Shown: positions 4,383 to 37,588 of the stretch, piece by piece
How positions within the stretch are numbered: the first letter of the stretch is position 1
How the letters are laid out: every line of letters begins with the position of its first letter
DNA from: Oscillospiraceae bacterium
GTDB lineage: Bacteria > Bacillota > Clostridia > Oscillospirales > JAAYXM01
Assembly: GCA_017439555.1 (NCBI GenBank)
Contig: JAFSIZ010000186.1
Coordinates: forward strand, 390 to 64,389
Direction of reading: 5' to 3'
Length of the DNA: 64,000 bases
The notes under the pieces: model-generated
What the model saw: the letters and a program-made list of their open reading frames with translations, nothing else
The model's database searches: none
Told to the model about the DNA's origin: nothing
Position numbers and translations under genes: made by a program

Positions 4383-6263
4383 ATGACAAGAGATATCAGA
4401 CAAGCGGTTGGAAGACCCGATAATTCGGTATTTATCAGGAAATGTATTATTTACGGCATTATTTTGGTGCTGATGCTGTTTGCCGCGCCGTCAATTTTCG
4501 AAAAGCTCCTTCCGGAAACGGCTGCCAAGGGCATCCTGTCGGCATGGTATGCCGTGTTCCTGCCTCTGACAGCCATCATTATGGCATTCGGGCTGTTTAA
4601 GTGCTGGCGTCGCCGCTGGCCGCTTGCCTATATGGACAACTACAGACGCGCGGCAAAGGACAACGGCTATAAAACTTGCCCACGCTGCAGCGCGGCCTTT
4701 GATCTGAAAACGCGCTCACGTTCTTACAGTACCAAGGTTGGCGAAAAGATCACCACAACTACCTACAGTGACGGTAGCCAAAGCAAGCATGTAGAGGATA
4801 TCAAGGGAACGAGAGTATCGGTTGAGAACTACTATGTATGCTCAAATAGCTCCTGCGGATTGGAACCGGATAAGAACTACAGCCAGAGCCATCTGCCCTG
4901 GAGAATGAGTGAGATACGCGCTTTGGTGCTCTGTGAAAGCAAAACGTCCGGCAAAATCCGATTGCCGCGATCTTCTAAATCTGCAAGCAGCCTGACGCTC
5001 TCCCGACTGACGGCACCATTCATCGCCGTAGTGCTGGTTGCGGTCGCTGTGATTCTCATTATGAACTATTCCAGTTGGTATGAAGGCGAATGGACCTATG
5101 TTACCGCTGACAAGCAGTCCTCACGCTCTGCCGAGCAATATCAGAACTATCTGCTGTCGCTCGATACAGGATATGCCAATTGGCACGTTACCTATGAAAA
5201 GGATTCCACCACGATGATGAACTACCTTGCCAAATTCATCAAGCTTGGAAAGACCACAGGCTACACTGTTGGCGGATATAATGCGGATGGCTACACCGTT
5301 TATGACTATCGATTTGAAGGTGACGATGCAGGAACGGGGATTCCCGAAGGCTGGTATACCCTGACAAGGATTGATGGCATCAACGTGCTTATCGACGAAG
5401 AGAACGAAGCTATTTACAAAGAAGGCAGCGAGTTTTACAAGACATATGCACCGAAGCTGAGAGCGCTTACCCACGATAAAGCCCTCGCTTCCGTCTTTGA
5501 GAAAACCTCCGGCGGCGAGCACGCTCTCCACGGCTCCAACGATTCCTGGATGGAATATATCCGCAAGGATAACAGTATGGTGTTCTCCTATCTGCTGCCG
5601 GGCGACGTTTCCAAAATCAGCGGTGATGAATTCCGCGCTGTCACCACATATCCGGAAGAGCAGATGGAGGAAAGATGGTATTTTACATATGGAACCGGCG
5701 ATTATTATCCCGATGATTGGGAAGGATTCTCCTATGCCGATGACAATGCTTTCAGCACCGATGATGAACTTGGCAAACTGATGAAAAAGTCCTTCGATGA
5801 CAGCGGCAGCGTGGCATTTTGCAAAAACGATGAAGTAGTATTGGGAATTTCCGTTGATTACTTCCCCAACGGCTATGACTTTGAGATCGAAGTCGCGGCA
5901 GAAGGCCACGAGAGAGGCTTTGAAGAAGATATGGTATACCGCATCAATACCACCGACAAAACTCTGACCAAAATTGAAAACTACGATTTTGAAGATGAAA
6001 AAAGAACGGATATGCCATTGTCTAAGCATCGGGATAAATATGATTTCCTGCTCAGTATCGTTCCCCATACCTACATCCGAAGAGTTATCGATATAGATAA
6101 GGCGGAAACAAGAAGAGAAAGCGTCGGCCTTGTGAAAATCTATGAAATGAAAGACGGAAACGGCAATGTTACCGCTGATATGAAACTGGCATTCGGTAAA
6201 ATCGGCGAGGTAAATCACTACACCGCAGAAGATGAATATGTAAAAATCGAATTAGGTTATTGA
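4383..6263 (+). CDS. Membrane protein: 2 TM, zinc ribbon, TM, large extracytoplasmic domain (function unknown)
   Basis: GGAGG RBS 8 nt before the ATG at 4383; the ORF track begins at TTG 4368. CPRC...CSNSSC zinc-ribbon pattern and hydrophobic helices. The C-terminal half is paralogous to the next ORF. Confidence 0.6.
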   Translation: MTRDIRQAVGRPDNSVFIRKCIIYGIILVLMLFAAPSIFEKLLPETAAKGILSAWYAVFLPLTAIIMAFGLFKCWRRRWPLAYMDNYRRAAKDNGYKTCPRCSAAFDLKTRSRSYSTKVGEKITTTTYSDGSQSKHVEDIKGTRVSVENYYVCSNSSCGLEPDKNYSQSHLPWRMSEIRALVLCESKTSGKIRLPRSSKSASSLTLSRLTAPFIAVVLVAVAVILIMNYSSWYEGEWTYVTADKQSSRSAEQYQNYLLSLDTGYANWHVTYEKDSTTMMNYLAKFIKLGKTTGYTVGGYNADGYTVYDYRFEGDDAGTGIPEGWYTLTRIDGINVLIDEENEAIYKEGSEFYKTYAPKLRALTHDKALASVFEKTSGGEHALHGSNDSWMEYIRKDNSMVFSYLLPGDVSKISGDEFRAVTTYPEEQMEERWYFTYGTGDYYPDDWEGFSYADDNAFSTDDELGKLMKKSFDDSGSVAFCKNDEVVLGISVDYFPNGYDFEIEVAAEGHERGFEEDMVYRINTTDKTLTKIENYDFEDEKRTDMPLSKHRDKYDFLLSIVPHTYIRRVIDIDKAETRRESVGLVKIYEMKDGNGNVTADMKLAFGKIGEVNHYTAEDEYVKIELGY

Positions 6264-6287
6264 TTACATTATATGGAGGAATAGATT

Positions 6288-7736
6288 ATGGGACGCTGTG
6301 CAAAATGCGGAATGCCAATGCCCGGAGATGGATCCGGTTTCGTGTGCTTGAATTGCGAGAGAGAAGAATTCGAGAAGAGAGCTCGCGAAGCTCGAAGGGG
6401 TGCTGAGGAAAATAAGGCTCAGACTGCAAATAAAAACCAGGGCAGGGTAAGGTTTTGGAACGATAAAGACGGAAACCTCGTCAGAGAATTCGCCGACGGG
6501 ACCAGAATAGTAACCACAAAGGGCGAGATTCGCCGCGGTTTCTGGGGGGCGGTTGCCATCATTCTTGCGGTGGTAGTTGCTATTGGTTTTGTCTTGATTA
6601 AGTTTGTATTCACTCCTCATTCCATCGAAAGCAGTTTTAGCGGCGAAGGTGCAGAGAATCTTGTGGTTACTGCTCCTCTTGGCGAGGAAGAAAACGCACT
6701 TCTTGCTCAGATCCGCACCATTGTCAAGGATGCAAAAGAATACGAGCTTCGTGTAACACAGTCCGAACCTAATTTGTTTGTAGGGGACAAAATTGCCGTC
6801 ACCCGCTGTTTTGCGGATGATAAATTCGGCGAGGGATTTACAGTCGATTTCAAGGGGCTTACGAGTGATTCGGGACTTAAGGGCAAATATACACTAATGA
6901 AATACGACGGCAAAATTTGCGTTTTCTGCGATAAGGACGAAACCATCTATCCGCCCGATTCAGATTATTATAAAACACATTATGAAGCTCTCGCAAAATG
7001 GAACGGCAAGGCGATGATTACGGAGCTTCTCGACAAGATACAAACAGGTGAGGTTTTTGAAAAATATACCGATATGTTTGTGCTGAGGTCGGATAAATTC
7101 AGCGTATTTGTCGCACAGGACGGCTCAGTTCGGTTGCTCGATGAAACCGGCGAAAAAGCTAAGCTTTACACCTTTACTCTCGTGGATACCGCAAAGCCCG
7201 AAAATTATGCCGACTATAAACCGCTGGGCTTCGAGGACAACGAAACCGACGAGCTGCAGAAGCTCCTGAACAAAGCCGACTATGATGCCACCATGAAGTG
7301 GTATGCAGGTGGTGAGAGCAAAGGCGAAATCGAAGTTATCGACAACGGAGACGGCTCCTATACGTTTACAAACGCCTATAATCCGACAAACAGGATAGCT
7401 TCCGGCAAATACATCCTCTATCCTGACGAAAGCCGTTATGAGTATTATAAATATACCAATCCCGAATATTACACGCTTTCCGATACACCTGAAAAATACA
7501 CTGCGAAAAACAGCCCCGATATATACAAACTGCTGTGTGATATGATTCCGGAAAATTACGTAAAGGCGCATCTGAATCTTGATAACGCGAAAAAAGGCGG
7601 CGTGCCGCTGCTTGAAACCACTTATACGGAGGATTTCGGCAACGGCAGAATGGCTGTGCTTGAAGTGGAGCTCGGAGGCAAAATGAGCTTTGAATATCAC
7701 GAAGGCGAAGACAATTACGTCGAGATTGATTGGTGA
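6288..7736 (+). CDS. Zinc-ribbon, TM, extracytoplasmic-domain protein; paralogue of the 4383 ORF
   Basis: GGAGG RBS. CAKCGMPM...CLNCE zinc ribbon. TM helix FWGAVAIILAVVVAIGFVLIKFVF. Blocks shared with the previous ORF include GKYTLMKYDGK/GWYTLTRIDGI, YYKTHYEAL/FYKTYAPKL and GEDNYVEIDW/AEDEYVKIELGY. Confidence 0.6.
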   Translation: MGRCAKCGMPMPGDGSGFVCLNCEREEFEKRAREARRGAEENKAQTANKNQGRVRFWNDKDGNLVREFADGTRIVTTKGEIRRGFWGAVAIILAVVVAIGFVLIKFVFTPHSIESSFSGEGAENLVVTAPLGEEENALLAQIRTIVKDAKEYELRVTQSEPNLFVGDKIAVTRCFADDKFGEGFTVDFKGLTSDSGLKGKYTLMKYDGKICVFCDKDETIYPPDSDYYKTHYEALAKWNGKAMITELLDKIQTGEVFEKYTDMFVLRSDKFSVFVAQDGSVRLLDETGEKAKLYTFTLVDTAKPENYADYKPLGFEDNETDELQKLLNKADYDATMKWYAGGESKGEIEVIDNGDGSYTFTNAYNPTNRIASGKYILYPDESRYEYYKYTNPEYYTLSDTPEKYTAKNSPDIYKLLCDMIPENYVKAHLNLDNAKKGGVPLLETTYTEDFGNGRMAVLEVELGGKMSFEYHEGEDNYVEIDW

Positions 7737-22336: not shown

Positions 22337-23527
22337 ATGAACTACAACAAAAAGACAATCGAAGACATAAACCCGCAGGGTAAGCGCGTGCTCGTGCGTT
22401 GTGACTTCAACGTAAAGCAGGACGATGCAGGCAACATCACAGACGACAAGAGAATCGTTGCGGCTCTTCCGACAATCAAATACCTCATCGAGAAGGGCGC
22501 ACGTGTCATCCTTTGCTCGCACCTCGGACGTCCGAAGGGTGAGGTCAACCCGAAGTTTACTCTTGCTCCTGTTGCCAAGCGTCTTTCCGAGCACCTCGGC
22601 ATCGAGGTCAAGATGGCTGCTGATGTCATCGGCGAAAGCGCAAAGTCTCTTGCTGCTTCTCTTGCAGACGGCGAGGTTATGCTTATTGAAAACGTCCGCT
22701 TCCACAAGGAAGAGGAGAAGAACGATCCTGCATTTGCAAAAGAACTTGCTTCTCTTGCAGAGCTCTATGTAAACGATGCTTTCGGCACGGCTCACCGCGC
22801 TCACGCTTCCACTGCAGGCGTTGCAGACTATCTCCCGGCTGTCTGCGGCTATCTCATCGGCAAGGAGATCGGAATCATGGGTGAGGCTCTTTCAAACCCG
22901 AAGCGTCCGTTCGTTGCAATCCTCGGCGGCGCAAAGGTTTCCGATAAGCTCGGCGTTATCAACAACCTCCTCGAAAAGGTTGACACGCTCATCATCGGCG
23001 GCGGTATGGCTTATACATTCGCAAAGGCAAAGGGCGGCACAATCGGAACATCCCTCTGCGAGGATGACCGCCTTGAATATGCTCTTGATATGATCAAGAA
23101 GGCAGAGGAGAAGGGTGTCAACTTCCTCCTCCCGACAGACACTGTTGCTGCGACAGAGTTTGCGGCAGATGCAGAGAGTAAGGTTGTCCCGACACAGGCA
23201 ATCCCCGATGGCTGGATGGGTCTCGATATCGGACCGGAGACAATCGAGAAGTTCTCTGCTGCTATCAAGGGCGCAGGAACAGTTATCTGGAACGGACCGA
23301 TGGGCGTATTTGAGTTCCCGAAGTTTGCTGTCGGAACAGAGTCCGTCTGCGCAGCAGTTGCAGAGAGCGGCTCAATCTCCATCGTCGGCGGCGGCGACTC
23401 TGCTGCAGCTGTCAAGAAGCTCGGATTTGCAAAGAAGATGACACACATCTCAACAGGCGGCGGCGCAAGCCTTGAGTTCCTCGAAGGAATCGCACTCCCG
23501 GGCATTGCTTGCCTTGAGGATAAGTAA
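22337..23527 (+). CDS. pgk: Phosphoglycerate kinase
   Basis: 396 aa. Motifs [19 protein letters not shown] and GGGDSAAA. Confidence 0.95.
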
Positions 23528-23636
23528 GAATATAACAGAAGTATGCAGGGGCGGATATTATCCGCCCGCAGAAAATCATTAAATAAGTAAAAGGGGCGAA
23601 ACACCCCGTTTAATATATAAGGAGACATCAGTTAAA

Positions 23637-24407
23637 ATGAACAGAAAATATCGCAAGACAATTATTGCGGGCAACTGGAAGATGAACAAAACGCCCGCTG
23701 AGACAAAGAAGATGTTTGAAGAGCTCAAGGTCGCTTGTGGCAAGCAGAAGTGGTGTGACGTTGTGCTTTGCGTTCCGTTTGTGGATATCCCTGCAGCGGT
23801 AAGAGCAAGCCGCGATGCAAAGATCGCTGTCGCAGCGCAGAATATGCACTATGAGGAAAAGGGCGCATTCACAGGTGAGGTCAGCGCTGAAATGCTCAAG
23901 GAGCTCGGCGTCAAGTTTGTTGTCATCGGTCATAGCGAGCGTCGCGAATACTATGGCGAGACAGACAAGACTGTCAATCTCAAGGTAAAGAAAGCTCTCG
24001 AGGTCGGCCTTCGTCCGATCATCTGCGTTGGCGAAACTCTCGAGCAGAGAGAATTCGATGTAACGGCAGAGCACATCACAATGCAGGTCAAGATTGCGCT
24101 TGCCGGCGTTCCTGCAGAGAAGATGAGGAAGATTGTTTTTGCATATGAGCCCATCTGGGCTATCGGCACAGGTAAGACAGCAACTGCAGAGCAGGCTGAA
24201 GAGGTCTGCGGCCTTATCCGTGCAGTTATCCGCGCAAAATACGGCGCAAGAACAGCCCGTGCAGTAACTATCCAGTATGGCGGCTCGATGAATCCGAAGA
24301 ACGCAGCAGAGCTTCTCTCAAAGCCTGACGTTGACGGCGGTCTCATCGGCGGCGCATCTCTTAAGACGGAGGACTTTGCTGCTGTTATCAATGCAGCAAA
24401 CCAATAA
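23637..24407 (+). CDS. tpiA: Triosephosphate isomerase
   Basis: 256 aa. Motifs AGNWKMN, VIGHSERR, AYEPIWAIGTG and GGASL. Confidence 0.95.
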   Translation: MNRKYRKTIIAGNWKMNKTPAETKKMFEELKVACGKQKWCDVVLCVPFVDIPAAVRASRDAKIAVAAQNMHYEEKGAFTGEVSAEMLKELGVKFVVIGHSERREYYGETDKTVNLKVKKALEVGLRPIICVGETLEQREFDVTAEHITMQVKIALAGVPAEKMRKIVFAYEPIWAIGTGKTATAEQAEEVCGLIRAVIRAKYGARTARAVTIQYGGSMNPKNAAELLSKPDVDGGLIGGASLKTEDFAAVINAANQ

Positions 24408-24412
24408 TTGAT

Positions 24413-27279
<2,867 letters not shown>

Positions 27280-27396: not shown

Positions 27397-27426
27397 TTGA
27401 CAATAGAGAGTTTGATATGATATCAT
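27397..27426 (+). promoter_or_regulatory. Possible promoter of the Ubl-locus operon
   Basis: TTGACA, 18-nt spacer, TATCAT, about 120 nt upstream of the first ORF of the locus. Confidence 0.35.
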
Positions 27427-27547
27427 AAAGAATATGAAAAAAATGTTAACTGATCGGTGTATATGGTCATATAAAAGCGAAAAGTAAGGAAACTGCATCG
27501 GTGTGTTACAAGCCTTCTGAGGATAACGAATAAGGGTGGGATCAGGT

Positions 27548-28432
27548 ATGGATAAACAGAAATTCGCAAGCGATGAAGCTGCGCAGGAGATGACGGATGC
27601 TCAGGAGAGTGCACAGCCGGAAGAAGCTTCGGAAAATCCTGTCACAGAGCCATCGGTTGCGGAAAGCGCAGAGGAAAAGGCAGAGGAAAAGCGTTGCCCG
27701 GTATGTGCCGCGCTTCTTGAGGCCGATGCTGAGTTCTGCACAGAATGCGGCGCAGCTGTAAAACCGAAGTGCAAGGGCTGCGGTGCGACGCTTGAACCGG
27801 GGCAGATGTTCTGCACAGGTTGTGGTATGCAGGTCATACAGCAGGCGCCGCCTGCCGATGCTTCTGCAGTAAGCAGCGGTATAAATGAGTATAACAGCAA
27901 AATCGGCAAAAAGAGCAAGGCGAAGATTATAATACCTGCAATAATTGTTGCAGTGTTGTTGATTTTCGGTGCTGTCGGCGGATATATTGCTCACGTCGAG
28001 CGGATTCATCAGCAGGTGCTTGAGTTTACAGAGGATGTTATGGATTATACGGCGGAAGTAAACTCGGCAACAGTGGTTCTCAAGAACATAAGCGAGGCGT
28101 GGGATATCGTTGATAAAAGCTCCTATCTCTACAGAAGCGAGCTCAGAACCTATGCAAGAAACCTTTATAAGGATAACATCAGCGATGCAAAGGATGTAAA
28201 TGATGGAATCGTCGATAAATATAACGATATTATGAGCTGTGATATCGAAGATCCATATGTCGAGAGGATTCAGGATGCTGTGGAAAAAACTCACGATCTG
28301 TATCTTGTCATTTATGAGGATGTAATTGAGAATGAGTCGGGCGGAAATGAAGATAACGCAGACAAAGTCATTGAGTATATAGCAGACGTAAAAGCTGTTG
28401 TTGATGAAGCAACGCTTGATTATGCAAGTTAA
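27548..28432 (+). CDS. Double zinc-ribbon, TM, extracytoplasmic helical-domain protein
   Basis: CPVCAALL...FCTECG and CKGCGATL...FCTGCG. TM helix IIIPAIIVAVLLIFGAVGGYI. ATG 27548 is preferred over GTG 27536. Confidence 0.6.
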   Translation: MDKQKFASDEAAQEMTDAQESAQPEEASENPVTEPSVAESAEEKAEEKRCPVCAALLEADAEFCTECGAAVKPKCKGCGATLEPGQMFCTGCGMQVIQQAPPADASAVSSGINEYNSKIGKKSKAKIIIPAIIVAVLLIFGAVGGYIAHVERIHQQVLEFTEDVMDYTAEVNSATVVLKNISEAWDIVDKSSYLYRSELRTYARNLYKDNISDAKDVNDGIVDKYNDIMSCDIEDPYVERIQDAVEKTHDLYLVIYEDVIENESGGNEDNADKVIEYIADVKAVVDEATLDYAS

Positions 28433-28450: not shown

Positions 28451-29242
28451 ATGGACAACAAGTTATTACAGGAAATTGAAGCTTCTTTGAAAAACAGTGC
28501 AGCGCCTGCGGAGCCTGTAGCACCTGCAGAGCCCGTAGCACCTGCAGAGCCCGCAGCACCTGCAGAACCCATAGCACCTGCGGAACCCGTAGCACCTGCG
28601 ACACCGGTCAAGAGATGCCCGAAGTGTCAGGCTGTTATCGAAGAGGGACAGATATTCTGTGCAGAATGCGGAGAAGCCCTCGTGAAGAGATGTGCTCAGT
28701 GTGGGGCAGAGCTTGCGGAAGCTCAGGCATTTTGCGCACAGTGCGGCACGCGTGTCGCAGCAGCGCCCGTTGCGCCCAACCCTGTCTATAGCGCTCCTGC
28801 CGGAAATGCTCCGTTTGCAACGGATTCTGTTCCGAAGCCGCAGGGCGTGGACAAAAAGCTCCTTCCGCTGATAGCGATAGGCGTCTGTGCTGTTATTGTT
28901 GTAGTTATACTTGCAAAGACCCTCTTTGCAGGGCCTGCGGATTTTGAAACCCTTTATGCTGACAGATACGGCGCAGAGTCGTGGTGCGAAATCTCGTCTG
29001 ACGGCTCCTGGATGGAGATTGATACAAACCCGAATGACATTGATGACTATTACAGCTCATCTGCGCTCGATGCTGTTGAAACCGTCAACGAGGAGCTCGG
29101 TTTCTCGAGCTCGGTATATGAGAAGATGATGGAGACAAGGGCTCTTGACGGAAGACAGTATGATGAATGCGAAGACTATGAAATCAGCTGGTCCTACCAT
29201 CCGAACAGAGGTATGGACGTTATGTATGAGCTCAAAGATTAA
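28451..29242 (+). CDS. PAEPxA-repeat, double zinc-ribbon, TM, extracytoplasmic-domain protein
   Basis: (A/V)APAEP repeated 6 times. CPKCQAVI...FCAECG and CAQCGAEL...FCAQCG. TM helix LLPLIAIGVCAVIVVVILA. Confidence 0.6.
   Translation: MDNKLLQEIEASLKNSAAPAEPVAPAEPVAPAEPAAPAEPIAPAEPVAPATPVKRCPKCQAVIEEGQIFCAECGEALVKRCAQCGAELAEAQAFCAQCGTRVAAAPVAPNPVYSAPAGNAPFATDSVPKPQGVDKKLLPLIAIGVCAVIVVVILAKTLFAGPADFETLYADRYGAESWCEISSDGSWMEIDTNPNDIDDYYSSSALDAVETVNEELGFSSSVYEKMMETRALDGRQYDECEDYEISWSYHPNRGMDVMYELKD
28502..28606 (+). repeat. Coding tandem repeat, 18 bp x about 6 (APAEPV)
   Basis: Units of gcacctgcagagcccgta with synonymous or near-synonymous variation. Confidence 0.85.
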
Positions 29243-29260
29243 TGATTGGAGGAAATAGAA

Positions 29261-29887
29261 ATGACAATTAAAAGAATTGCTGCATTTATTCTCGCACTTG
29301 TTATGGTATTTACGCTTACGGGCTGCAAAAGCTCTGATTACAAGAAGGCTATGGCTCTCTTTGATGAAGGAAACTTCTCTGAGGCACAAGCGGCTTTTGA
29401 AGCTCTCGGAGATTATAAGGACAGTCTGAGCTATGCGGAAAATATCGGTTGGTATGCAGTGCGTGCACACATTCTTGAAAACGGCAAAATAGAATATGAA
29501 GCGACGGAAACTCTTATGCTCGAAATCGATATGATGGGCGATGATGTTATCGTAATCAGGGAATATATGGATGAAGATATTATGAAGTTCAATATTCAGG
29601 CGGAGCTCTCTCTTGGGGAAACGGTCGTTCCTTATAAGGCTGATATAGAGCTGATCATCGAAGGTGCAAGCGGAAAAGAAGCAGGAGTCGGAAAGCTTGA
29701 TATAGCGTCCTATAAAGAAGGCGATTCGATCAAGTGGGACAACTCGACCTGCTCACCGTATGAAGATCTTATAATTCTCAAGGATTTCTCAGGCCCGACA
29801 AAGACCTTTGTCGAAAATACAAAAAAGGCCATCGAGGCGGCCGGAATCAACATCACAATGGCAGAATTCGGATTTGAAAGCTATTGA
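29261..29887 (+). CDS. Lipoprotein; paralogue of the extracytoplasmic part of the Ubl-fusion ORF
   Basis: Signal peptide with lipobox FTLTGC. Blocks shared with 29920: F(E/D)xGN/EY..A...FE.LGDYKDS and the C-terminal ITMAEFGFESY versus ITLADFGFVSFE. GGAGG RBS before ATG 29261. Confidence 0.65.
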   Translation: MTIKRIAAFILALVMVFTLTGCKSSDYKKAMALFDEGNFSEAQAAFEALGDYKDSLSYAENIGWYAVRAHILENGKIEYEATETLMLEIDMMGDDVIVIREYMDEDIMKFNIQAELSLGETVVPYKADIELIIEGASGKEAGVGKLDIASYKEGDSIKWDNSTCSPYEDLIILKDFSGPTKTFVENTKKAIEAAGINITMAEFGFESY

Positions 29888-29919: not shown

Positions 29920-30936
29920 ATGGGAAAAGTAAGTGTAATTATCGTTGATGCAACAGGAAACAAGGAACAGAAGGTCGGCCTTCCGGACGATATCAAAATC
30001 GGAATCATTATGGTCAAGCTCGTCGAGAAGATAAAGCTTCCGTCCACAGGACCTGACGGCAACCCGATAAGCTATAAGTTTATCCACAAGGTCTCGGGGC
30101 GCCAGCTTCTCGAAACACAGACTCTTGCTGATGCAGGAATCAAGGACGGCGATGTTCTCAGACTTCAGCCTGAGATAACCGCTGGTGCAATCGGCAGAGC
30201 GCGAGGTGCGGTTTCGCGTTTTTTTAAGAAGGCCGCAGCTCTTGCGATTGCAGGTGTTATGCTGATTTCGCTCTGCGGCTGTGATATGCTCGATTATGGC
30301 AAAGCAAAAAAGCTCTATGAAAAGGGCGAATATAAAGAGGCTGTGACGATCTTTGAGAATCTCGGCGATTATAAGGACAGCGCAGACTATCTCAAAAAAG
30401 CGCGAGTCGAATGGTTCAAGGAATATGCCGAGGAAAACGGCGATGAAATAGGAGACGACAAGCGCATTACAAAAAGCTATAAAGGTGACAAAAACGACAC
30501 TTATATAGTTGCAATGGGTTCTGAGGGCGATATGATAGAGTTTGTAATTTTTGTCGACAAGGATCTTGAATTTGTTGAGTTTACCGACTTTATAAAGATA
30601 CACTTCAAGCCCGGCGCTTCGGAGGCAGACTTTACATATGACAGCACAATGACGATTGATTATAAAAATATTTCTGCAGAAAGCGAGAGTACCACGACGG
30701 GGGTTATCGATATTGCAAACTACACAAACTCCACAGTTGTAGAAGCGCTTACGTATGAGTATGAAGGCGTTGATGTCTCCGGCAATAAATCCAGTGAGAG
30801 CGGCGCTGAAAACGCAAAGATGACCGACTTCAACGACATCTACATAGATAATCTCTTTAACGGCTGTAAGGAAATTCTTGCAGAAACAGGTATGGGAATA
30901 ACTCTTGCTGATTTCGGCTTCGTTTCCTTCGAATAA
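29920..30936 (+). CDS. Ubiquitin-like (beta-grasp) domain fused to a TM/lipoprotein-signal-like segment and an extracytoplasmic domain
   Basis: Residues 1-89 end in QTLADAGIKDGDVLRLQPEITAG, a ubiquitin-like C-terminal strand with a terminal Gly. A basic stretch and ALAIAGVMLISLCGC follow, then a domain paralogous to the 29261 lipoprotein. AAGGAGA RBS. Confidence 0.65.
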   Translation: MGKVSVIIVDATGNKEQKVGLPDDIKIGIIMVKLVEKIKLPSTGPDGNPISYKFIHKVSGRQLLETQTLADAGIKDGDVLRLQPEITAGAIGRARGAVSRFFKKAAALAIAGVMLISLCGCDMLDYGKAKKLYEKGEYKEAVTIFENLGDYKDSADYLKKARVEWFKEYAEENGDEIGDDKRITKSYKGDKNDTYIVAMGSEGDMIEFVIFVDKDLEFVEFTDFIKIHFKPGASEADFTYDSTMTIDYKNISAESESTTTGVIDIANYTNSTVVEALTYEYEGVDVSGNKSSESGAENAKMTDFNDIYIDNLFNGCKEILAETGMGITLADFGFVSFE

Positions 30937-30965: not shown

Positions 30966-32153
30966 ATGTCAATGGATATCGAATTTGAAAAGAATGATTT
31001 TGAAGAAAACCGATATTCCCGTCTTGAGCTGATTCCCTGGTGGAATCAGGAGCTTCTGCACAACTCGACTGTTATGGTAGTCGGTGCCGGGGCGATAGGA
31101 AACGAGCTTATAAAGAACCTTGCTTTGCTCGGTGTCGGAAAAATCGTTATTGTCGATATGGATAAAATTGAGCAGACAAATCTGACGCGCTCGATACTTT
31201 ACCGTATGAAGGATGTCGGCAAATACAAATCAGAGGCTGCGGCGCAATCTGCGATGGAAATAAACCCGGATGTGCGCGCAATATGCCTCAACAGCAACAT
31301 CGTGACGGATATAGGTCTTGGAGTGTTCAGGCAGATGGACGTTGTTCTGGGCGGCCTTGATAACCGTGAGGCGCGCCTTGCAATCAATCAATCGTGCTAT
31401 AAGGTGAACAAGCCGTGGATAGACGGCGCGATAGAAGTTCTCAACGGCTTTGCAAGAGTCTTTGTGCCGCCGGGGCCGTGTTATGAATGCACGATGACGG
31501 AGACTGACTGGAGGCTCATCAACAAGCGCAAATCGTGCGCGTTGCTGACTCACGACCAGATGCTTGAGGGGAAGACCCCGACAACTCCGACATCCTCGTC
31601 GGTTATTGCCGGCATACAGGTGCAGGAGATGCTCAAGCTTCTCCACAATGACAGAAATCTGCCGACGCTTGCCGGAAAGGGCTATGTGTTCAACGGGCTC
31701 ACCCACGATTCATTCGTTGTTGAGTATCAGCAAAAGGAAGATTGTATGAGCCACGACCTCTATGAGGATATACGTGAGATGCCGTGGTCAGCGCGCACAG
31801 TTTCGTTTGGTGACATCATAGAAGAGGCATCGCGTGAGCTTGGTGGATCGGTTGTCATAGAGCTTGACCGCGATATTGCGACGACGGCGACCTGCGTTTG
31901 CGGCCACAAAAAAGACATTTTCAACACGGTAAACCGCCTGCGCGGCAAGGACATAGTTTGCGAGAAATGCGGAAAGTCCATGCAGTTTGAGGCAATACAC
32001 ACGGTGACGGCGGATTCCGATTTCCTTGGCAGAAAGCTTTTTGATGTCGGTCTTCCGCTATATCACATAATCGCTGTGCGCAAAGGTATGAAATATATTT
32101 ATTATGAATTGTCCGCAGACAAGGACGAGGTTTTGGGAGGTCTGTTTGAATGA
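30966..32153 (+). CDS. ThiF/MoeB-type E1-like adenylyltransferase
   Basis: Rossmann/ATP motif VMVVGAGAIGNELIKNLALLGVGKIVIVDMDKIEQTNLTRS. CYEC and C..CEKCG cysteine pairs. Candidate catalytic Cys in KRKSCALL. Confidence 0.8.
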   Translation: MSMDIEFEKNDFEENRYSRLELIPWWNQELLHNSTVMVVGAGAIGNELIKNLALLGVGKIVIVDMDKIEQTNLTRSILYRMKDVGKYKSEAAAQSAMEINPDVRAICLNSNIVTDIGLGVFRQMDVVLGGLDNREARLAINQSCYKVNKPWIDGAIEVLNGFARVFVPPGPCYECTMTETDWRLINKRKSCALLTHDQMLEGKTPTTPTSSSVIAGIQVQEMLKLLHNDRNLPTLAGKGYVFNGLTHDSFVVEYQQKEDCMSHDLYEDIREMPWSARTVSFGDIIEEASRELGGSVVIELDRDIATTATCVCGHKKDIFNTVNRLRGKDIVCEKCGKSMQFEAIHTVTADSDFLGRKLFDVGLPLYHIIAVRKGMKYIYYELSADKDEVLGGLFE

Positions 32154-34180
32154 ATGCAAGAATGAGGAGAATCGCCTCTGACTACGAACAGATTAAAAAG
32201 AATTTTTCAAACCATAAAAACATTGTTGTTGAGCCTATCGGCGAAGAGCCTGCAGAGAAATACAGAGTTACATATTATGTAAACGGCATATATCTTCTCG
32301 ATGACGGCAGGATAGAAACTCTCGGAAAGCACATTGTTATAATAACGCTCCACGCGGAGTATCCGAGATACAAGCCGATATGCACAATAGCAACGCCGAT
32401 CTGGCATCCGAATTTCAGGGATGGGCAGATATGCATCGGAGATATATGGGGTGCAGGTGAATCCCTTTCCGATATTATCGTCAACATCGGCGATATGATT
32501 CAGTATAAGAGCTGGAATTCCTTCAGCCCGCTTTCGGCAGATGCCGCAGAATGGGCGATTGAGAACAAGCATCTCTTCCCTGTTGGAAACATAAATCTCT
32601 GGACGGGTGAGGAAGAGGACGGCACGGTCAAGGGCGATTTCGATATCGATATCTTCGATGGCGAAGACGCAGCAGAAGAGGCGGCTCCTGCAGAAGAAAC
32701 GGCGCCTGTTGAAGATGCCGTGCCGGCTGAAGAAGCTGCTCCTATTGAGGAGGCTGCGCCGGCTGAAGAAAACTTCAAGGAAACTCAGGCAAACGTCAAC
32801 GCAGCTCAGGGTGGAGATGTAAACGTTTCAGATTCCGGAAAGCTGAAGGAGGAGAGCCCGGCCTCGATTTCGGCGGTGTCATCTGCTCCGGCGGAGAAAG
32901 GTGACGAAGAGGATTTTGAGATAACCGCAGAGGAGCTTGCAGGAATAGAGTTTGTTCCGAGCGTTGTAAGAATGCAGGGCAGCCAATACGGAGCAACGGC
33001 AAAGGGCGGAAAGATAAATTTAAAGACTGTGCTTGTCAAGGGTCTGCTCTGGGCTCTCATAGGCGCATTCCTCGGCTTTGTTGTTTCTGAGATTGCAAAT
33101 CCGCTGATCGGCAATGCTGCCGTTGCGAGAATGCTCGGTCATTCAGAGCTTGCGGATTATTATGAATACACTGAGCTTGCGGATGAGGCTATTGCACCTG
33201 TAAACCGCGCGTTTGCCGATTATTGCAACAGAACAGGCAAGAATCCGAACAGTGAGGGCGTGCTCGAGGATTGGCTTGAGGCAAATTCCTCTGCCTATTC
33301 CGGCGCTATAGATCTCTATTCTGACTATGACGACAAGGCAGACGAAGCTCTTTATAATGCATATGAAGATGACTTTGCCTCGAATGAGGATGCACTCGGA
33401 GACGCTCTGGCCGGAATATCGAGAACGCACACAGCTCTCTGGTCGGGGATAATAGCTCTCTTTATAGGGCTCTTCCTCGGAATTGGTGAGGGTGTATACT
33501 ATGGCTCAAAGGAAAACGCGCTGAAATATGCGCTTATCGGCGCAGGTATCTCGATTGCTGTCGGCGCAGTGAGCGGATATCTCGCACAGTGGATGTATGC
33601 ATCTATGCTTTCGGATTATTCGTCAAGCATTGCTTCTGCGTTTGTGCGCGGTCTCGGATGGGCGATAATGGGCGCAGGCATTGGCTTGTCTATAGGTCTT
33701 ATCAAGCCTGAGCAGAAGAGAATCCTTTTCTGCACGCTCGGCGGCGTTATCGGTGCATTTATCGGCGGATTCCTGTTCAACTATGTCTGCGATATCATAC
33801 CCAATGACATAGTTGCCCGCGGAATTGCGATAATCATCATGGGGCTTCTTATCGGTGTCGGCGTCGGTATGCTTGAGCAGTTTGCAAAGGCGGCGTGGCT
33901 CAAGGTCATCAGAGGCGAATTTGAAGGTAAGGAATATCTTGTATTTGAGGGCAGAACATCAATCGGTAACAGCGGCAAGAACACAATTGTTCTCTTTAAA
34001 GACAAGCTTGTTGCTCCCGATCATTGTGAAATTGTTCAGGAAGGCACTAAATATGTTCTCGTTGACAAGGGCTCACCGATGGGAACTGTTGTCAACGGAA
34101 TGAGAATAACACGTCACGTTCTGCGTCAGGGCGATGCAATTGCAATAGGCAATTCAGTGCTCGTATTCAATATGAAATAA
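32150..34180 (+). CDS. E2 (UBC-like) domain, acidic PAEE linker, polytopic membrane region, C-terminal FHA domain
   Basis: RRIASDYEQIKK, EYPRYKP and IWHPNFRDGQIC(95)IGDIW give the HPN-x6-Cys E2 signature, with the Cys codon at 32432-32434. Several long hydrophobic helices lie at about 33040-33900. The FHA pattern is GRTSIGNS...APDHCEI...YVLVDKGSPMGTVVNG...L..GD.I.IG. ATGA overlap with the E1 gene. Confidence 0.75.
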   Translation: MNARMRRIASDYEQIKKNFSNHKNIVVEPIGEEPAEKYRVTYYVNGIYLLDDGRIETLGKHIVIITLHAEYPRYKPICTIATPIWHPNFRDGQICIGDIWGAGESLSDIIVNIGDMIQYKSWNSFSPLSADAAEWAIENKHLFPVGNINLWTGEEEDGTVKGDFDIDIFDGEDAAEEAAPAEETAPVEDAVPAEEAAPIEEAAPAEENFKETQANVNAAQGGDVNVSDSGKLKEESPASISAVSSAPAEKGDEEDFEITAEELAGIEFVPSVVRMQGSQYGATAKGGKINLKTVLVKGLLWALIGAFLGFVVSEIANPLIGNAAVARMLGHSELADYYEYTELADEAIAPVNRAFADYCNRTGKNPNSEGVLEDWLEANSSAYSGAIDLYSDYDDKADEALYNAYEDDFASNEDALGDALAGISRTHTALWSGIIALFIGLFLGIGEGVYYGSKENALKYALIGAGISIAVGAVSGYLAQWMYASMLSDYSSSIASAFVRGLGWAIMGAGIGLSIGLIKPEQKRILFCTLGGVIGAFIGGFLFNYVCDIIPNDIVARGIAIIIMGLLIGVGVGMLEQFAKAAWLKVIRGEFEGKEYLVFEGRTSIGNSGKNTIVLFKDKLVAPDHCEIVQEGTKYVLVDKGSPMGTVVNGMRITRHVLRQGDAIAIGNSVLVFNMK

Positions 34181-34301
34181 AAGCGGCGAAGGCAAAATAC
34201 AGATAGTATAATCAACAACGAAAGGGGGACAGTGTTACGCGTAAGCCAAAACACTGTCTCTCTGTCCGTTTTCACAAAAAGAAGGCAAGGAGTGAAACAG
34301 A

Positions 34302-35180
34302 TTGAGCAACCTGAGAAAAAAGGGCAGCAAGAAGAAAAAGGCCGTAAGCCGTGAGCTTTTGCCTGAGCTGCCGCAGAATATTTTCCCTGTAGGCGAGCGT
34401 GTTCTTGATAACAAAAACATATACATTCATCAGAAGGTCTATGCGCAGATTCATAAATTTGCTTCCAACAAAACGGAAAATGAGCACGGCGGAATTCTTG
34501 TCGGCCGTGTGGTCAATGAGATGGGCAAGGAAAACACAATAATAGAGGCGTTTATTGAGGCAAAATATAATGCCGCAACGCCGACAACATTGACCTTCAC
34601 TCACGAGACGTGGGAGCATTTCCATTCTGAAATGGACAAGAAATATAAAGACAGGAAAATCGTCGGATGGATACACACACATCCGAACTTCGGTATATTC
34701 CTTTCAGAAAACGACAGATTCATCCAGCAGAACTTTTTCACGGATGTAAATCAGGTCGCATATGTAGTTGACCCGATACAGAACGACGAAGGCTTTTTCT
34801 TCTGGGTTGACGGGCGGCTTGAGCGTTGCCCGGGATTTTATCTGTTCGATAAGGTCGGAATCAAGATAAGACAAAAGGCAATCTGGGAGAAGGGCTCTGA
34901 CGATGAGAATGAAGGCGGCGAAAAATCGTTTGGTACCGGAATACTTATCCCGATTCTCCTCGCTCTGATTGTTCTGGCAAATATGGTGCTTACGATAAAT
35001 CAGAATTCAAGGATGAACAGGCTTGCGCAAAAGCTTGCTCAGGCAGAGCAGGTCATCCAGAGCCAGATAATTATGATCAACGGCCTGAGAGAGCAGGTCT
35101 ATGAGCTTGAAGGCTATCATATGCCTGAGCCTCAGGAGGAGACAACGGAAAATACTGAAAAAGATTCAGAGAAGAAATAG
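34302..35180 (+). CDS. JAB/MPN (JAMM) metallopeptidase with C-terminal TM helix and coiled coil
   Basis: Glu in EAFIEAKY plus HTHPNFGIFLSEND gives a complete E...HxHx7Sx2D JAMM motif. TM helix GILIPILLALIVLANMVLTI. TTG start with an AAGGAG RBS. Confidence 0.78.
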   Translation: MSNLRKKGSKKKKAVSRELLPELPQNIFPVGERVLDNKNIYIHQKVYAQIHKFASNKTENEHGGILVGRVVNEMGKENTIIEAFIEAKYNAATPTTLTFTHETWEHFHSEMDKKYKDRKIVGWIHTHPNFGIFLSENDRFIQQNFFTDVNQVAYVVDPIQNDEGFFFWVDGRLERCPGFYLFDKVGIKIRQKAIWEKGSDDENEGGEKSFGTGILIPILLALIVLANMVLTINQNSRMNRLAQKLAQAEQVIQSQIIMINGLREQVYELEGYHMPEPQEETTENTEKDSEKK

Positions 35181-35193
35181 GAGGAGCGCAGAT

Positions 35194-36057
35194 ATGGATT
35201 ATACAGGAAAAATTTGCCCCTATTGCCAGACGGAATTCCGCGAAGGTGACGATATTGTCGTGTGCAGTGTATGCGAAATGCCTCACCATAAGGAATGCTG
35301 GATTGAAAACAAGGCCTGCACAACCTTTGGCTGCACAGGAACGATAAAGGGCGTTGACCAGAGCACAGAGGCGGCGATAAATGAGACGGAATGTGTAAGC
35401 TGCGGTGCAAAAATGAAGGCAGGGCAAAAGTTCTGTTCGAAATGCGGAGCGGCGGCAAGCAGCGGCGGGCCAAGATTTCAGGCGGCAGGAGCAAATATGC
35501 AGCAACCGTATGCAAATCAGCAGCCATACGCAAATCAGCAACCGTATGCAAATCAGCAGCCATACGCAAATCAGCAGCCGTATGCAAATCAGCAGCCGAT
35601 ATACGGACAGATGTGTGCTAAATATGATGCAAATGACCCGGTTATGATTGCGTTTCTTGAAAAGAATATAATGCAATACGTAAACATCTTCAATAATCTT
35701 GAGGCGAAAAACTCAAAGACATCCTGGAACTGGTGTGCATTTCTTTTTGGAGCAAACTGGTTTGCATATAGAAGGATGTATCCGCTCGCGGCAGCGATTA
35801 TCGGCGTTTCCTTTGTTCTCACTCTCTTCGGAGAGGTTGGAACTTTCCTGAGCCTGGCGATGTCTGTATGTCTTGGGATTTTCGGAAACTTTCTTTACAA
35901 GCAGCACATTGATGTTGAAAAACAGGCTTGTGCAGGTTTTGATGATGCAGGAAAAAGCGCTCATATAGCAAAGAAGGGCGGAGTAAGCGTGGTTTCGGTT
36001 GTTGTTATGTGCATCATTACATTCGTTCTGAATATGTTTTTTACAACTGTCGGGTGA
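35194..36057 (+). CDS. C4HC3 RING/PHD-like zinc finger, zinc ribbon, (QQPYAN)n linker, DUF2628-like multi-TM domain
   Basis: C-x2-C-x12-C-x2-C-x4-H-x2-C-x6-C-x4-C within KICPYCQTEFREGDDIVVCSVCEMPHHKECWIENKACTTFGC (nt 35215-35334). CVSCGAKM...FCSKCG zinc ribbon. WNWCAFLFGANWFAYRRMY is DUF2628-like. AGGAGG RBS before ATG 35194. Confidence 0.65.
   Translation: MDYTGKICPYCQTEFREGDDIVVCSVCEMPHHKECWIENKACTTFGCTGTIKGVDQSTEAAINETECVSCGAKMKAGQKFCSKCGAAASSGGPRFQAAGANMQQPYANQQPYANQQPYANQQPYANQQPYANQQPIYGQMCAKYDANDPVMIAFLEKNIMQYVNIFNNLEAKNSKTSWNWCAFLFGANWFAYRRMYPLAAAIIGVSFVLTLFGEVGTFLSLAMSVCLGIFGNFLYKQHIDVEKQACAGFDDAGKSAHIAKKGGVSVVSVVVMCIITFVLNMFFTTVG
35500..35600 (+). repeat. Coding tandem repeat, 18 bp x about 5.5 (QQPYAN)
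   Basis: cagca(a/g)cc(g/a)ta(t/c)gcaaat units. Confidence 0.85.
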
Positions 36058-36063
36058 TAGGTG

Positions 36064-36834
36064 ATGGAAGATTTCAACATTGAAATAATCGACAGCGGAG
36101 CGGCTTCGGCTACAAGGCCGCTTCCGTTGCCGAAGAATTTCGTGGCTGTTGGCGACGCCGGCGGAGATAGTGCGCAGATATATATAAAACAGGATGTCTA
36201 CAAGAGGATAGAAAAATTTGCAAAGGAGCAGATGTCCAAAGAGGTCGGGTCTGTTCTTGTCGGAGAATATGCCGTTGTCGGCGGCAGGAATACGGTTATC
36301 ATTTCCGATTTCATAGAGGCGAAATATACCGATGCCACAGCCGCGACGCTCACATTCACACACGATACCTGGGATTATATCAACCGTGAGCTTGAGACAA
36401 ACTATCAGGGTAAGGTGATAGTCGGCTGGCAGCACACACATCCCGGCTACGGCGTTTTTCTGTCGAGCTATGATATGTTCATTCAGGAAAATTTCTTCAA
36501 TCTTCCGTGGCAGATTGCATATGTTGTTGACCCGATTGCGGATACGAGGGGGTTTTTCGAATGGAAGGACGGAAAGGTCGTTCCGTCGGGCGGCTTTTTC
36601 GTGTATGACGCAATAGGCCGCAGGATAGACATTGATAAGCCTGTGAGCCTGCAAGGAAAAGGCTTTTCGAAGCTGAGCGTTATTCTTGCAATTCTGCTTG
36701 CGCTGTCTCTTATCGCAATGATATGGCTGACTGTCGAAAACGGAATTCTCAGGAACTATCACCATTCGATAGAACGCATTGAACAGGATCTCGAGGAGCG
36801 GGATCTGCCCATAAGAACAGATGACCTGATTTAG
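36064..36834 (+). CDS. Second JAB/MPN (JAMM) metallopeptidase with C-terminal TM helix
   Basis: EAKY Glu plus HTHPGYGVFLSSYD gives a complete JAMM motif. TM helix LSVILAILLALSLIAMIWLTV. Start is ATG 36064 or GTG 36061. Confidence 0.78.
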   Translation: MEDFNIEIIDSGAASATRPLPLPKNFVAVGDAGGDSAQIYIKQDVYKRIEKFAKEQMSKEVGSVLVGEYAVVGGRNTVIISDFIEAKYTDATAATLTFTHDTWDYINRELETNYQGKVIVGWQHTHPGYGVFLSSYDMFIQENFFNLPWQIAYVVDPIADTRGFFEWKDGKVVPSGGFFVYDAIGRRIDIDKPVSLQGKGFSKLSVILAILLALSLIAMIWLTVENGILRNYHHSIERIEQDLEERDLPIRTDDLI

Positions 36835-36995: not shown

Positions 36996-37541
36996 ATGTA
37001 TGAAGAAATAAAAACAGCCCTGCGCACTGCGGCGGAGGAGCTTTGCGAAAATGCGAAGCTGAAGGCAGGCGATATCGTCGCAATCGGATGCTCAACGAGC
37101 GAGGTAATGGGCGAAAAAATCGGAACAAGCTCTGTTGCGGAGCTTGGCGCGGCAATCTATAGTGCGCTCAGCGAGGTTTTCTCGGCAAAGGGAATCTATA
37201 TCGCGGCGCAGTGCTGTGAGCATTTAAACCGTGCGCTCATCATCGAGCGCGAAGCAGTCCCCGGCGCATATGTCTGCAACGCAGTTCCCCAGCCGAAGGC
37301 AGGCGGCTCTTTTGCAACGGCGGCATACGCCGCAATGCGTGATCCGGTCGCAGTCGAAAGAGTTGTTGCTGATGCAGGAATGGACATCGGCGACACTCTT
37401 ATAGGAATGCACGTCAGACCCGTTGTTGTTCCGTGCAGGCTTTCAATCAGGAGCATAGGAGAAGCGCATCTCGTTTGCGCAAGAAGCCGCGCAAAATTCA
37501 TAGGCGGCGAGCGCGCACACTATGACAAGGATTTGATGTAG
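36996..37541 (+). CDS. TIGR01440 / UPF0340 (YwlG-like) family protein
   Basis: 181 aa. ...GDIVAIGCSTSEVMGEKIG...IYIAAQCCEHLNRALIIERE... matches this family as I recall it. Confidence 0.62.
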   Translation: MYEEIKTALRTAAEELCENAKLKAGDIVAIGCSTSEVMGEKIGTSSVAELGAAIYSALSEVFSAKGIYIAAQCCEHLNRALIIEREAVPGAYVCNAVPQPKAGGSFATAAYAAMRDPVAVERVVADAGMDIGDTLIGMHVRPVVVPCRLSIRSIGEAHLVCARSRAKFIGGERAHYDKDLM

Positions 37542-37552
37542 GATAAAAAATG

Positions 37553-37588
37553 CAGCTACCCGAAAATTTTTTCGGGTAGCTGTTTTTA
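37553..37588. terminator. Bidirectional terminator
   Basis: cagctacccgaaaa/ttttcgggtagctg hairpin between convergent genes, followed by a T-run. Confidence 0.75.

Follow-up and report, generated by a model that had tools for sequence, protein, structure and literature searches.

A ubiquitin-like domain fused to a predicted prolipoprotein within a membrane-associated E1/E2/RING/JAB gene cluster of an Oscillospiraceae bacterium

The subject of this analysis is a gene at positions 29920-30936 (+ strand) of a 64,000-nucleotide stretch of Oscillospiraceae bacterium DNA (GenBank assembly GCA_017439555.1, contig JAFSIZ010000186.1, positions 390 to 64,389), which is referred to as the window. The open reading frame (ORF) begins with an ATG preceded by AAGGAG and encodes 338 amino acids (aa), in which an N-terminal ubiquitin-like (Ubl) domain is joined to a lipoprotein-like tail. 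The comparisons described below suggest that the product is a precursor that is probably divided into two proteins. The parts of the gene, and the adjacent paralogue of its tail, are as follows.

29261..29887, + strand: stand-alone lipoprotein, 208 aa, lipobox L-T-G-C22, paralogue of the Ubl tail (BLASTP E 1e-15)
29920..30186, + strand: Ubl domain, residues 1-89, ending LRLQPEITAG (Pfam PF08817, Foldseek, comparison)
30187..30279, + strand: internal lipoprotein signal peptide, residues 90-120 (sequence, transmembrane scan, paralogue alignment)
30280..30936, + strand: predicted mature lipoprotein, residues 121-338 plus the stop codon (AlphaFold, profile search)

The Ubl domain ends in ...DVLRLQPEITAG, and the Gly89 codon was found to be ggt at 30184-30186, where the first-pass annotation of this DNA had placed it. 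Directly after Gly89 comes AIGRARGAVSRFFKK-AAALAIAGVMLISLCGC, of which AIGRARGAVSRFFKK (residues 90-104) is a basic n-region with five Arg/Lys residues. A hydrophobic core follows (residues 105-118 in the transmembrane scan, AAALAIAGVMLISL), then the lipobox-like L118-C-G-C121, the Cys121 codon lying at 30280-30282, with 217 residues beyond. Gut metagenomes of three studies supplied independent Logan contigs that span the junction (30150-30300) without indels, and 12 contigs from four sources (JGI, ENA/Logan, NCBI) bear the 338-aa protein cluster; an assembly artefact as the source of the fusion was ruled out on these grounds. The identical fusion allele is present in several gut metagenomes. 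The region just past the junction also contains a run of seven T residues (30219-30225, CGT TTT TTT AAG), 11 codons past Gly89. The -1 frame there reads TAA at once, so that a -1 slip on the run would yield the Ubl with a 13-residue tail. No variation in the length of the run was seen among DNA contigs.

Residues 10-82 of the fusion match Pfam YukD (PF08817) with an E value of 2.5e-12 and 47.8 bits (curated cutoff 27). An AlphaFold model of the N-domain, built on an alignment of 27 homologues, has the topology beta-beta-alpha-beta...beta with pLDDT of about 67-85. In Foldseek comparisons, the model superposed on ubiquitin, SUMO1 and NEDD8 with target-normalised TM-scores of 0.80-0.87 and probability 1.00, and the range was 0.74-0.87, also at probability 1.00, once Caldiarchaeum ubiquitin and a bacterial Ubl were included. 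The structural matches also comprised the bacterial Ubl-deubiquitinase complex 8tyx and the part of EccD that consists of a Ubl plus transmembrane segments. A sequence search of the PDB gave Caldiarchaeum ubiquitin as the best match, which was weak (E about 0.1; 28% identity in the structural alignment). These results agree with the beta-grasp fold that had been proposed for the N-domain.

Relatives were collected in two ways. A search of 5.8 billion proteins gave 228 relatives of the Ubl, 120 of them listed, and a scan of one genome per species found the Ubl in at least 102 species, from which 80 loci were kept for a census. These loci are labelled almost entirely as Clostridia (Oscillospiraceae, Acutalibacteraceae, Ruminococcaceae, Lachnospiraceae and Christensenellaceae), with Massiliimalia massiliensis and Lachnospiraceae MC2017 as cultured carriers; a few are bins labelled Synergistaceae or Synergistales, and some of the labels of metagenome-assembled genomes are implausible. 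The 118 listed homologues that have an 89-residue domain share 58 invariant columns out of 89 and are 81-99% identical in pairwise comparison. When the Ubl coding sequences of the 80 loci and the window were compared, synonymous differences were saturated (median pS 0.83), as against a pN of 0.06 at nonsynonymous sites. Because the synonymous differences are saturated, the high identity does not come from recent transfer, and recent horizontal transfer was ruled out as its cause. Judged from these alignments, purifying selection on the Ubl is strong and its conservation is ubiquitin-like in degree.

The conservation stops at Gly89. The sequence LRLQ[P/A]EITAG was found in all 120 listed homologues and EITAG in all 80 genome loci, so that Gly89 is kept in every one, as the reading of this residue as the end of a conjugatable Ubl had anticipated. 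What follows it differs greatly among the loci: there is an immediate stop codon in 12 of the 80, 1-9 unrelated residues in 49, a zinc-ribbon/membrane tail in 15, and in the other four a 318-residue lipobox tail of another kind. Since 12 genes stop at Gly89 and others carry unrelated tails, the residues past Gly89 are dispensable for the Ubl. On this comparative evidence, Gly89 is the functional C terminus of the Ubl and everything beyond it is removable. The first-pass annotation had left three possible ends, Gly89, Gly92 and Gly96; the first is invariant, whereas the other two are not conserved among relatives, nor is the rest of the sequence past Gly89, and both were dropped as cleavage sites.

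Among the 120 listed homologues, 112 tails have a zinc ribbon, starting two residues past the Gly, together with one or two transmembrane segments; seven have a signal peptide, a canonical lipobox and an ectodomain, and one has another kind of transmembrane tail. The closest relatives of the window, with E1 enzymes 84-86% identical, have zinc-ribbon tails (L001-L006) or short tails (at least L012, 93 aa). Because these nearest relatives differ from the window in tail type, the tails appear to turn over fast while the Ubl stays. Tails of the lipoprotein type occur in both sequence clades of the Ubl with at least three different ectodomains. The metagenomic contig L081 contains two tandem Ubl-prolipoprotein genes (4918-5976 and 6096-7217), the ectodomains of which differ. 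Head-to-tail poly-Ubl genes were not seen among the relatives compared.

The long tails are also related to separate genes of the cluster. Past the ribbon, the Ubl tails of L008 and L014 align with the zinc-ribbon membrane protein gene of the window at 28451-29242 (E 9e-9 and 7e-6). A module composed of a zinc ribbon, a transmembrane segment, 'GGDAYTG' and a second transmembrane segment forms the Ubl tail in many genomes and also the C-terminal half of Prok-RING_1 proteins. RING proteins whose C-terminal half is a zinc ribbon and two transmembrane segments flanking 'YGGDAYTGIQNAAAQTANN' lie directly upstream of the Ubl at L051 (9082-9936), L059, L069, L070 and L072. The 'YGGDAYTGIQNAAAQTANN' module thus occurs in both contexts, which indicates that the same membrane module is joined either to an E3 finger or to the Ubl. 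In L012 and L043, ectodomains with GDYKDS repeats are borne by the upstream zinc-ribbon transmembrane proteins. From these alignments, the long tails are in every case membrane-inserting and akin to separate genes that accompany the system. A stricter rule, by which each tail would be paralogous to the gene next upstream, proved only partly true, as zinc-ribbon tails share little past the ribbon with the neighbours in their own loci.

The tail of the window itself (residues 90-338) belongs to a family of lipoproteins. Residues 103-338 align with the upstream lipoprotein at 27% identity over 242 columns (BLASTP E 1e-15), and the alignment spans the signal peptide, the lipobox, GDYKDS and the C-terminal IT(L/M)A(D/E)FGF, which bears out the proposal that the segment after the Ubl aligns with the signal peptide and lipobox of that protein and that the remainder is its paralogue. 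The start of the upstream gene was likewise correctly taken as ATG 29261, with a Shine-Dalgarno sequence GGAGG at 29248 (the mechanical ORF list starts at TTG 29246), and its product is identical to database protein P0121. A profile of the tail and this paralogue, searched exhaustively against 1.84 billion representatives, matched 4294 proteins at E<=1e-3. The full-length family matches are proteins of 240-380 aa with an ordinary N-terminal signal peptide and lipobox (LTGC, LAGC, LCGC, LTAC and others), one to five repeats and a shared C-domain ending G[LI].IT[ML]ADLGF, and residues 90-120 of the fusion sit exactly where this family has its signal peptide.

The ectodomain of the tail consists of one helical repeat of about 37 aa, DY..A..L...G.Y.EA...F..LGDYKDS, and a beta-sheet domain ending GITLADFGF. 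An AlphaFold model on the family alignment (pLDDT 91.9, pTM 0.85) shows a helical hairpin, a long helix, an eight-stranded antiparallel sheet and a C-terminal helix. A Foldseek search of the PDB with this model gave no significant match (best E 6e-3, TM-score about 0.1-0.3), and when the ectodomain alone was used in a word-index homologue search, the query was the only sequence to come back. The repeat in the form DY..A..L...G.Y.EA...F..LGDY[KE]DS, found in the window at 30283-30400 and 29336-29450, is very widespread: 1170 representatives match at E<=1e-10, and up to about 25 copies occur in proteins of more than 2500 residues (among P0122-P0270). For the upstream lipoprotein, the one member of the repeat family that was scanned, Pfam gave only sub-threshold TPR matches.

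The tail has the basic n-region, h-region and lipobox of a lipoprotein precursor, with homology over the mature part. Its 249 residues are uninterrupted and keep the family motifs. A lipobox ending in Cys was found in seven of seven lipoprotein-type tails of the listed homologues and in four of four lipobox-tailed loci, the forms in other Ubl tails being LSGC, LSAC, LIGC and LFAC (for L081a, the canonical LSGC was identified by reading the sequence, as the pattern scan had halted at an ILGC before it). After a cut at Gly89, the lipobox Cys would be residue 32. The only candidate in-frame start between Gly89 and Cys121 is an ATG at codon 114, which lies inside the hydrophobic core and is not usable; the tail lipoprotein is therefore producible only as part of the fusion. 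Because the lipobox Cys is kept in the lipoprotein-type tails and the stand-alone relatives are ordinary lipoproteins, the tail appears to be live and not a relic: the fusion in front of a lipoprotein signal stands, the word 'former' in the first-pass annotation says too little of the tail, and the tail is best read from its sequence as a still-functional predicted prolipoprotein.

The Ubl gene lies in a co-directional cluster bounded by a promoter-like site at 27397-27426 and a strong terminator-like hairpin at 37552-37583. The remaining features of the cluster are listed here.

27397..27426, + strand: promoter-like site TTGACA-18-TATCAT, TG-extended (consensus scan 11/12, pattern match only)
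27536..28432, + strand: double zinc-ribbon single-pass membrane protein 1 (Pfam DZR and Zn_Ribbon_1; four CxxC; transmembrane segment 125-143)
28451..29242, + strand: double zinc-ribbon single-pass membrane protein 2, kin of the Ubl tails of other genomes (Pfam, alignment)
30966..32153, + strand: E1-like adenylating enzyme of ThiF/MoeB type (Pfam ThiF E 2e-54; GAGAIG, PCYEC, second CxxC)
32150..34180, + strand: E2 (HPN...Cys95) with an acidic Pro/Ala linker, 5-6 transmembrane segments (291-564) and a C-terminal FHA domain (Pfam UQ_con, FHA)
34302..35180, + strand: JAB/JAMM peptidase 1 (JAB1), single transmembrane segment at about 207-225, candidate processing/deconjugating enzyme (Pfam JAB E 8e-12)
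35191..36057, + strand: protein with Prok-RING_1 finger, zinc ribbon, Gln/Pro-rich repeat and 3-transmembrane DUF2628, candidate E3 (PF14446 E 6e-15)
36061..36834, + strand: JAB/JAMM peptidase 2 (JAB2), single transmembrane segment at about 199-217 (Pfam JAB)
37552..37583, + strand: bidirectional terminator-like hairpin after the TIGR01440-family gene (36996-37541) (14-bp stem, T-run)

The Ubl is thus adjoined by a cognate conjugation set of E1, E2, RING protein and two JAMM peptidases, and the JAMM, HPN-Cys, GxGxxG and PCYEC motifs of the cluster proteins are intact. The HxHx7Sx2D motif reads HTHPNFGIFLSEND in JAB1 and HTHPGYGVFLSSYD in JAB2, and the Glu upstream of the JAMM motif was read by eye from the translations of both. 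The best PDB sequence match of JAB1 is the Caldiarchaeum Rpn11-like protein 6fjv (E 7e-9), and the best matches of the E2 domain are eukaryotic E2s. The mechanical ORF of the RING gene, with its start at 35101, shares 80 nt with JAB1; the real start is likely ATG 35191 (MDYTGKICPYC), judging from homologues that begin MENYIGK.CPYC. The hairpin at 37552-37583 is the probable end of the transcription unit, as far as its sequence can tell.

The order Ubl, E1, E2/transmembrane/FHA, JAB, RING, JAB is kept in related loci with enough flanking sequence. Between the E2-FHA gene and the first JAB, 51 of 57 related loci have a gene for a trypsin-like serine protease with a membrane anchor (Pfam Trypsin, Trypsin_2), for example at 10316-11230 in L081 and 13221-14039 in L012; no homologue of it was found in the 64 kb of the window, where the corresponding gap (34180-34302) is 120 bp. 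In the window, the cluster directly follows a glycolytic block (22337-27279; pgk-like, tpi-like, gpmI-like, eno) and precedes the TIGR01440-family gene. The flanks tested, eno and the TIGR01440 gene, were beside the operon in none of the 80 other genomes, which indicates that the cluster occupies different chromosomal contexts.

Several further observations concern the cluster and its relatives. In L081 and L082 (214-2845), a pair of HTH_XRE and Peptidase_M78 (ImmA/IrrE-like) genes precedes the operon, a phage-type integrase lies near it in L082, and in both contigs LysM is joined to the second JAB and Big_2 to an upstream RING-zinc-ribbon protein. Tandem repeats are present in the cytoplasmic linkers of window proteins: PAEP[VAI]A in zinc-ribbon protein 2 (28451-28640), [EA]EAAPxEE in the E2 linker (32650-32780), and five copies of QQPYAN in the RING protein (35480-35600).

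The domain identities, the Gly89 boundary and its invariance, the interchangeable or absent tails, the make-up of the operon and the catalytic motifs are direct observations. From them we infer cleavage, the JAB responsible for it, conjugation, lipidation, the order of events and the targets, in a pathway in which the precursor probably gives rise to two proteins, a conjugatable Ubl ending at Gly89 and a prolipoprotein consisting of residues 90-338. Given the positive charges N-terminal to it, the hydrophobic segment would insert in the N-in/C-out orientation. This would hold the Ubl on the cytoplasmic side of the membrane, to which the E2, the RING protein and the two JABs are also predicted to be anchored. 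A JAB would cut the Gly89-Ala90 bond. The freed Ubl would be adenylated by the ThiF-type E1, handed to the HPN-Cys E2 and, with the RING protein, attached to membrane-proximal targets, and the JABs may also reverse this attachment. The C-terminal product, AIGRARG...LCG-C121, which has the form of a typical Lgt and signal peptidase II substrate, or else the uncut precursor, would be lipidated at Cys121 by Lgt, and a cut by signal peptidase II would then give an extracytoplasmic lipoprotein.

By analogy with known systems, the cleavage site after Gly89 is most likely used by a JAB. The proposal of a pro-protein trimmed by a neighbouring JAB, made in the first-pass annotation, gains support from the comparison, in which some genes end at Gly89 itself (12 of 80), the JAMM motifs are intact and the nearest match of JAB1 is the Caldiarchaeum Rpn11 homologue. 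We are more confident of Gly89 as the mature end, and of a released and activated Ubl, than of the pathway as a whole, and less confident of the lipoprotein half and of the identity of the protease.

Certain points weigh against this pathway. The residue before Gly89 is Ala, so that the site is Thr-Ala-Gly89 followed by Ala90 and not a di-glycine. The lipobox Cys is residue 121 of the encoded protein, behind a folded 89-residue domain and not behind an N-terminal signal, a position that does not fit the customary definition of lipoprotein signal peptides, and a Cys at the -2 position of a lipobox is uncommon. Most loci in which the Ubl needs no trimming nevertheless have two JABs, from which it follows that at least one JAB has another job, presumably deconjugation. 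Classical YukD has been reported not to be conjugated (PMC1779556). In addition, our literature searches found no experimental work on this Clostridial Ubl system, and a search for RNA-seq runs found none.

Four other explanations of the fusion were considered. The first is that a deletion or rearrangement joined the two genes by accident, in which case the Ubl would be trimmed and used and the tail would be a non-functional passenger on its way to being lost. Such an origin would account for a tail type unlike that of the closest relatives, for the rarity of the lipoprotein-tail architecture (7 of 120 listed proteins, 4 of 80 loci) and for a tail with no start codon of its own. We consider it unlikely, given that the tail is uninterrupted over all 249 residues, is modelled at high confidence and keeps the family motifs and lipobox, that lipoprotein tails recur in both Ubl clades with at least three ectodomains and at one tandem locus, and that the same allele is found in several gut metagenomes.

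The second explanation is that the Ubl is never released and acts as a permanent membrane-tethered, non-conjugated adaptor like the Ubl of EccD, recruiting the E1, E2 and JAB to a membrane site. The best Pfam match of the Ubl is indeed YukD, the Foldseek alignments include EccD chains in which a Ubl is followed by transmembrane helices, and besides the non-conjugated YukD an actinobacterial Ubl fused to a domain of 12 transmembrane segments has been described (PMC1779556). Yet 61 of the 80 genomes encode the Ubl without any membrane tether (no tail, or 1-9 residues), conservation halts exactly at Gly89, and the operon has the full E1/E2/RING/JAB set and no type VII secretion genes. The tethered alternative, which the first-pass annotation had also raised, is for these reasons disfavoured and in our view quite improbable, although it may hold for an uncleaved fraction of the protein.

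Very unlikely, thirdly, is a scheme in which only Lgt and signal peptidase II process the precursor and the Ubl stays on the signal-peptide helix, or in which a protease other than a JAB frees it. The lipobox conserved in all lipoprotein-type tails would suit the former and the trypsin-like protease genes of 51 of 57 related loci the latter, but the window has no trypsin-like gene, the invariance of Gly89 and the tail-less genes would be left unexplained, and E1 enzymes require a free C-terminal Gly, as in the archaeal system (PMC5654768). Finally, a ribosomal -1 or transcriptional slip on the T7 run, with the Ubl plus 13 residues as the main product and the fusion as a minor one, is in our view extremely improbable: T_TTT_TTT_A is a slippery heptamer in the right frame with TAA in the -1 frame, but an A/T run of at least six occurs in the same region in only 2 of 22 other long-tail genes, and the run does not vary in length in DNA contigs.

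The pathway with a cut at Gly89 can be extended to the role of the whole cluster. It may be a ubiquitin-grade tagging system of a housekeeping type at the cytoplasmic face of the membrane in gut Clostridia, in which exported or membrane proteins are deliberately given the Ubl as their cytoplasmic head and its release is coupled to the insertion of envelope proteins; we offer this as a speculation and hold it to be doubtful. Partners that would fit a link to the envelope are the LysM, Big_2 and GDYKDS-repeat ectodomains of related loci and the FHA domain on the E2. If this were true, a single signal peptide would be flanked by a JAB site on the inside and a signal peptidase II site on the outside, and release of the Ubl would be stoichiometrically and spatially coupled to insertion, making it a built-in reporter or regulator that connects envelope biogenesis or sensing with intracellular Ubl conjugation.

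Should the proposed mechanism be right, abundant Clostridia of the gut would have a ubiquitin system with several features that are commonly presented as eukaryotic, namely a near-invariant modifier, precursor fusions to unrelated functional proteins, an HPN-type E2, a RING E3 and Rpn11-like trimming, and the whole of this system would be built on the membrane. One polypeptide would be expected to yield a cytoplasmic Ubl of about 9.5 kDa, a signal-peptide remnant of about 3 kDa and a lipoprotein on the cell surface. The fusion would make a very clean test object, as every step can be addressed by known genetic or chemical means (JAMM mutants, a Gly89 mutant, globomycin).

The operon type itself is already known. 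Burroughs, Iyer and Aravind are said to have predicted prokaryotic E1/E2/RING/JAB operons with YukD-like Ubls from genomes in 2011, and their abstract reportedly suggested that YukD-like Ubls might be conjugated by such systems. The window has the same gene set as those predicted operons, and the fusion would give the 2011 idea its first precise and checkable cleavage site. In a later paper, the same group stated that a Ubl embedded in a longer protein could be set free by a JAB (PMC7159879). The literature that we searched, which did not include the 2011 paper, gave no account of a lipoprotein-precursor tail, a tail census or ubiquitin-grade conservation. What appears to be new here is a complete prolipoprotein as a removable tail, with its signal peptide bracketed by a cytoplasmic and an extracytoplasmic cleavage site (both predicted), as well as the census that fixes the mature end at Gly89 and, from the aligned sequences, the ubiquitin-grade conservation.

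With regard to other known systems, the YukD/EsaB and EccD proteins share Pfam PF08817 and the beta-grasp fold with the Ubl of the window, and EccD likewise joins a Ubl to transmembrane helices. They differ in being located in ESX/type VII secretion system (T7SS) loci, whereas the window Ubl has an invariant terminal Gly and a full conjugation set; to our knowledge, the Ubls of YukD, EsaB and EccD have no conserved terminal Gly. No T7SS Pfam domains (FtsK-like EssC/EccC ATPase, WXG100) were found in the nine cluster proteins scanned, the flanking genes being outside that scan; the flank gene at 36996-37541 matches only TIGR01440 (NCBIfam), and in two related contigs with listed genes the neighbours are genes of the ubiquitin system. 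Because there is no T7SS context, the window system is not a member of the T7SS YukD/EccD system.

The Bil (BilABCD), Bub and CBASS Cap2/Cap3 systems likewise combine E1 and E2 domains with a peptidase (a JAB or another type) and with a Ubl or a C terminus that resembles one. Searches with PADLOC and NCBIfam gave generic E1 and JAB similarity only (PADLOC BilD E 1e-8), well below curated cutoffs, and the Ubl, E2 and RING proteins had no match in either, so that no curated family for the system exists there. A scan of viral contigs for the Ubl system found none. The conservation of the Ubl is far above expectation for a fast-evolving defence gene. The window system is not a member of Bil, CBASS or 6A-MBL.

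Closer likenesses are found elsewhere. In eukaryotes, ubiquitin is made as Ub-eL40/UBA52, Ub-eS31/RPS27A and polyubiquitin with a terminal extra residue, from which it is released by deubiquitinases. These precursors resemble the genes described here in that a near-invariant modifier stands at the N terminus, ahead of either an unrelated functional protein or a short variable tail, and the zinc ribbon two residues past the Gly in most bacterial tails recalls the zinc-binding ribosomal tails; they differ in that the bacterial tails are membrane or exported proteins and not ribosomal ones. The Caldiarchaeum operon (PMC5654768; PMC6043591; PDB 6fj7, 6fnn, 6fjv) likewise brings together a Ubl, an E1, an HPN-type E2, a RING protein and a JAMM peptidase. 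In Caldiarchaeum subterraneum, pro-ubiquitin carries a 9-residue propeptide that the Rpn11 homologue trims off, and the untrimmed form resists E1 (PMC5654768); the Ubl of the window is similarly made with a C-terminal extension that would have to be removed before E1 activation, the cut here being predicted. The archaeal propeptide consists of nine residues after Gly-Gly, whereas in the window a 249-residue prolipoprotein follows Ala-Gly; the E2, the RING protein and both JABs of the window are membrane proteins, the E2 has an FHA domain, and the Ubl belongs to Pfam YukD and not to the ubiquitin family. The lipoprotein tail is thus a variation on the pro-ubiquitin theme, and by analogy the system would work like the pro-ubiquitin systems of Caldiarchaeum and eukaryotes in functional type.

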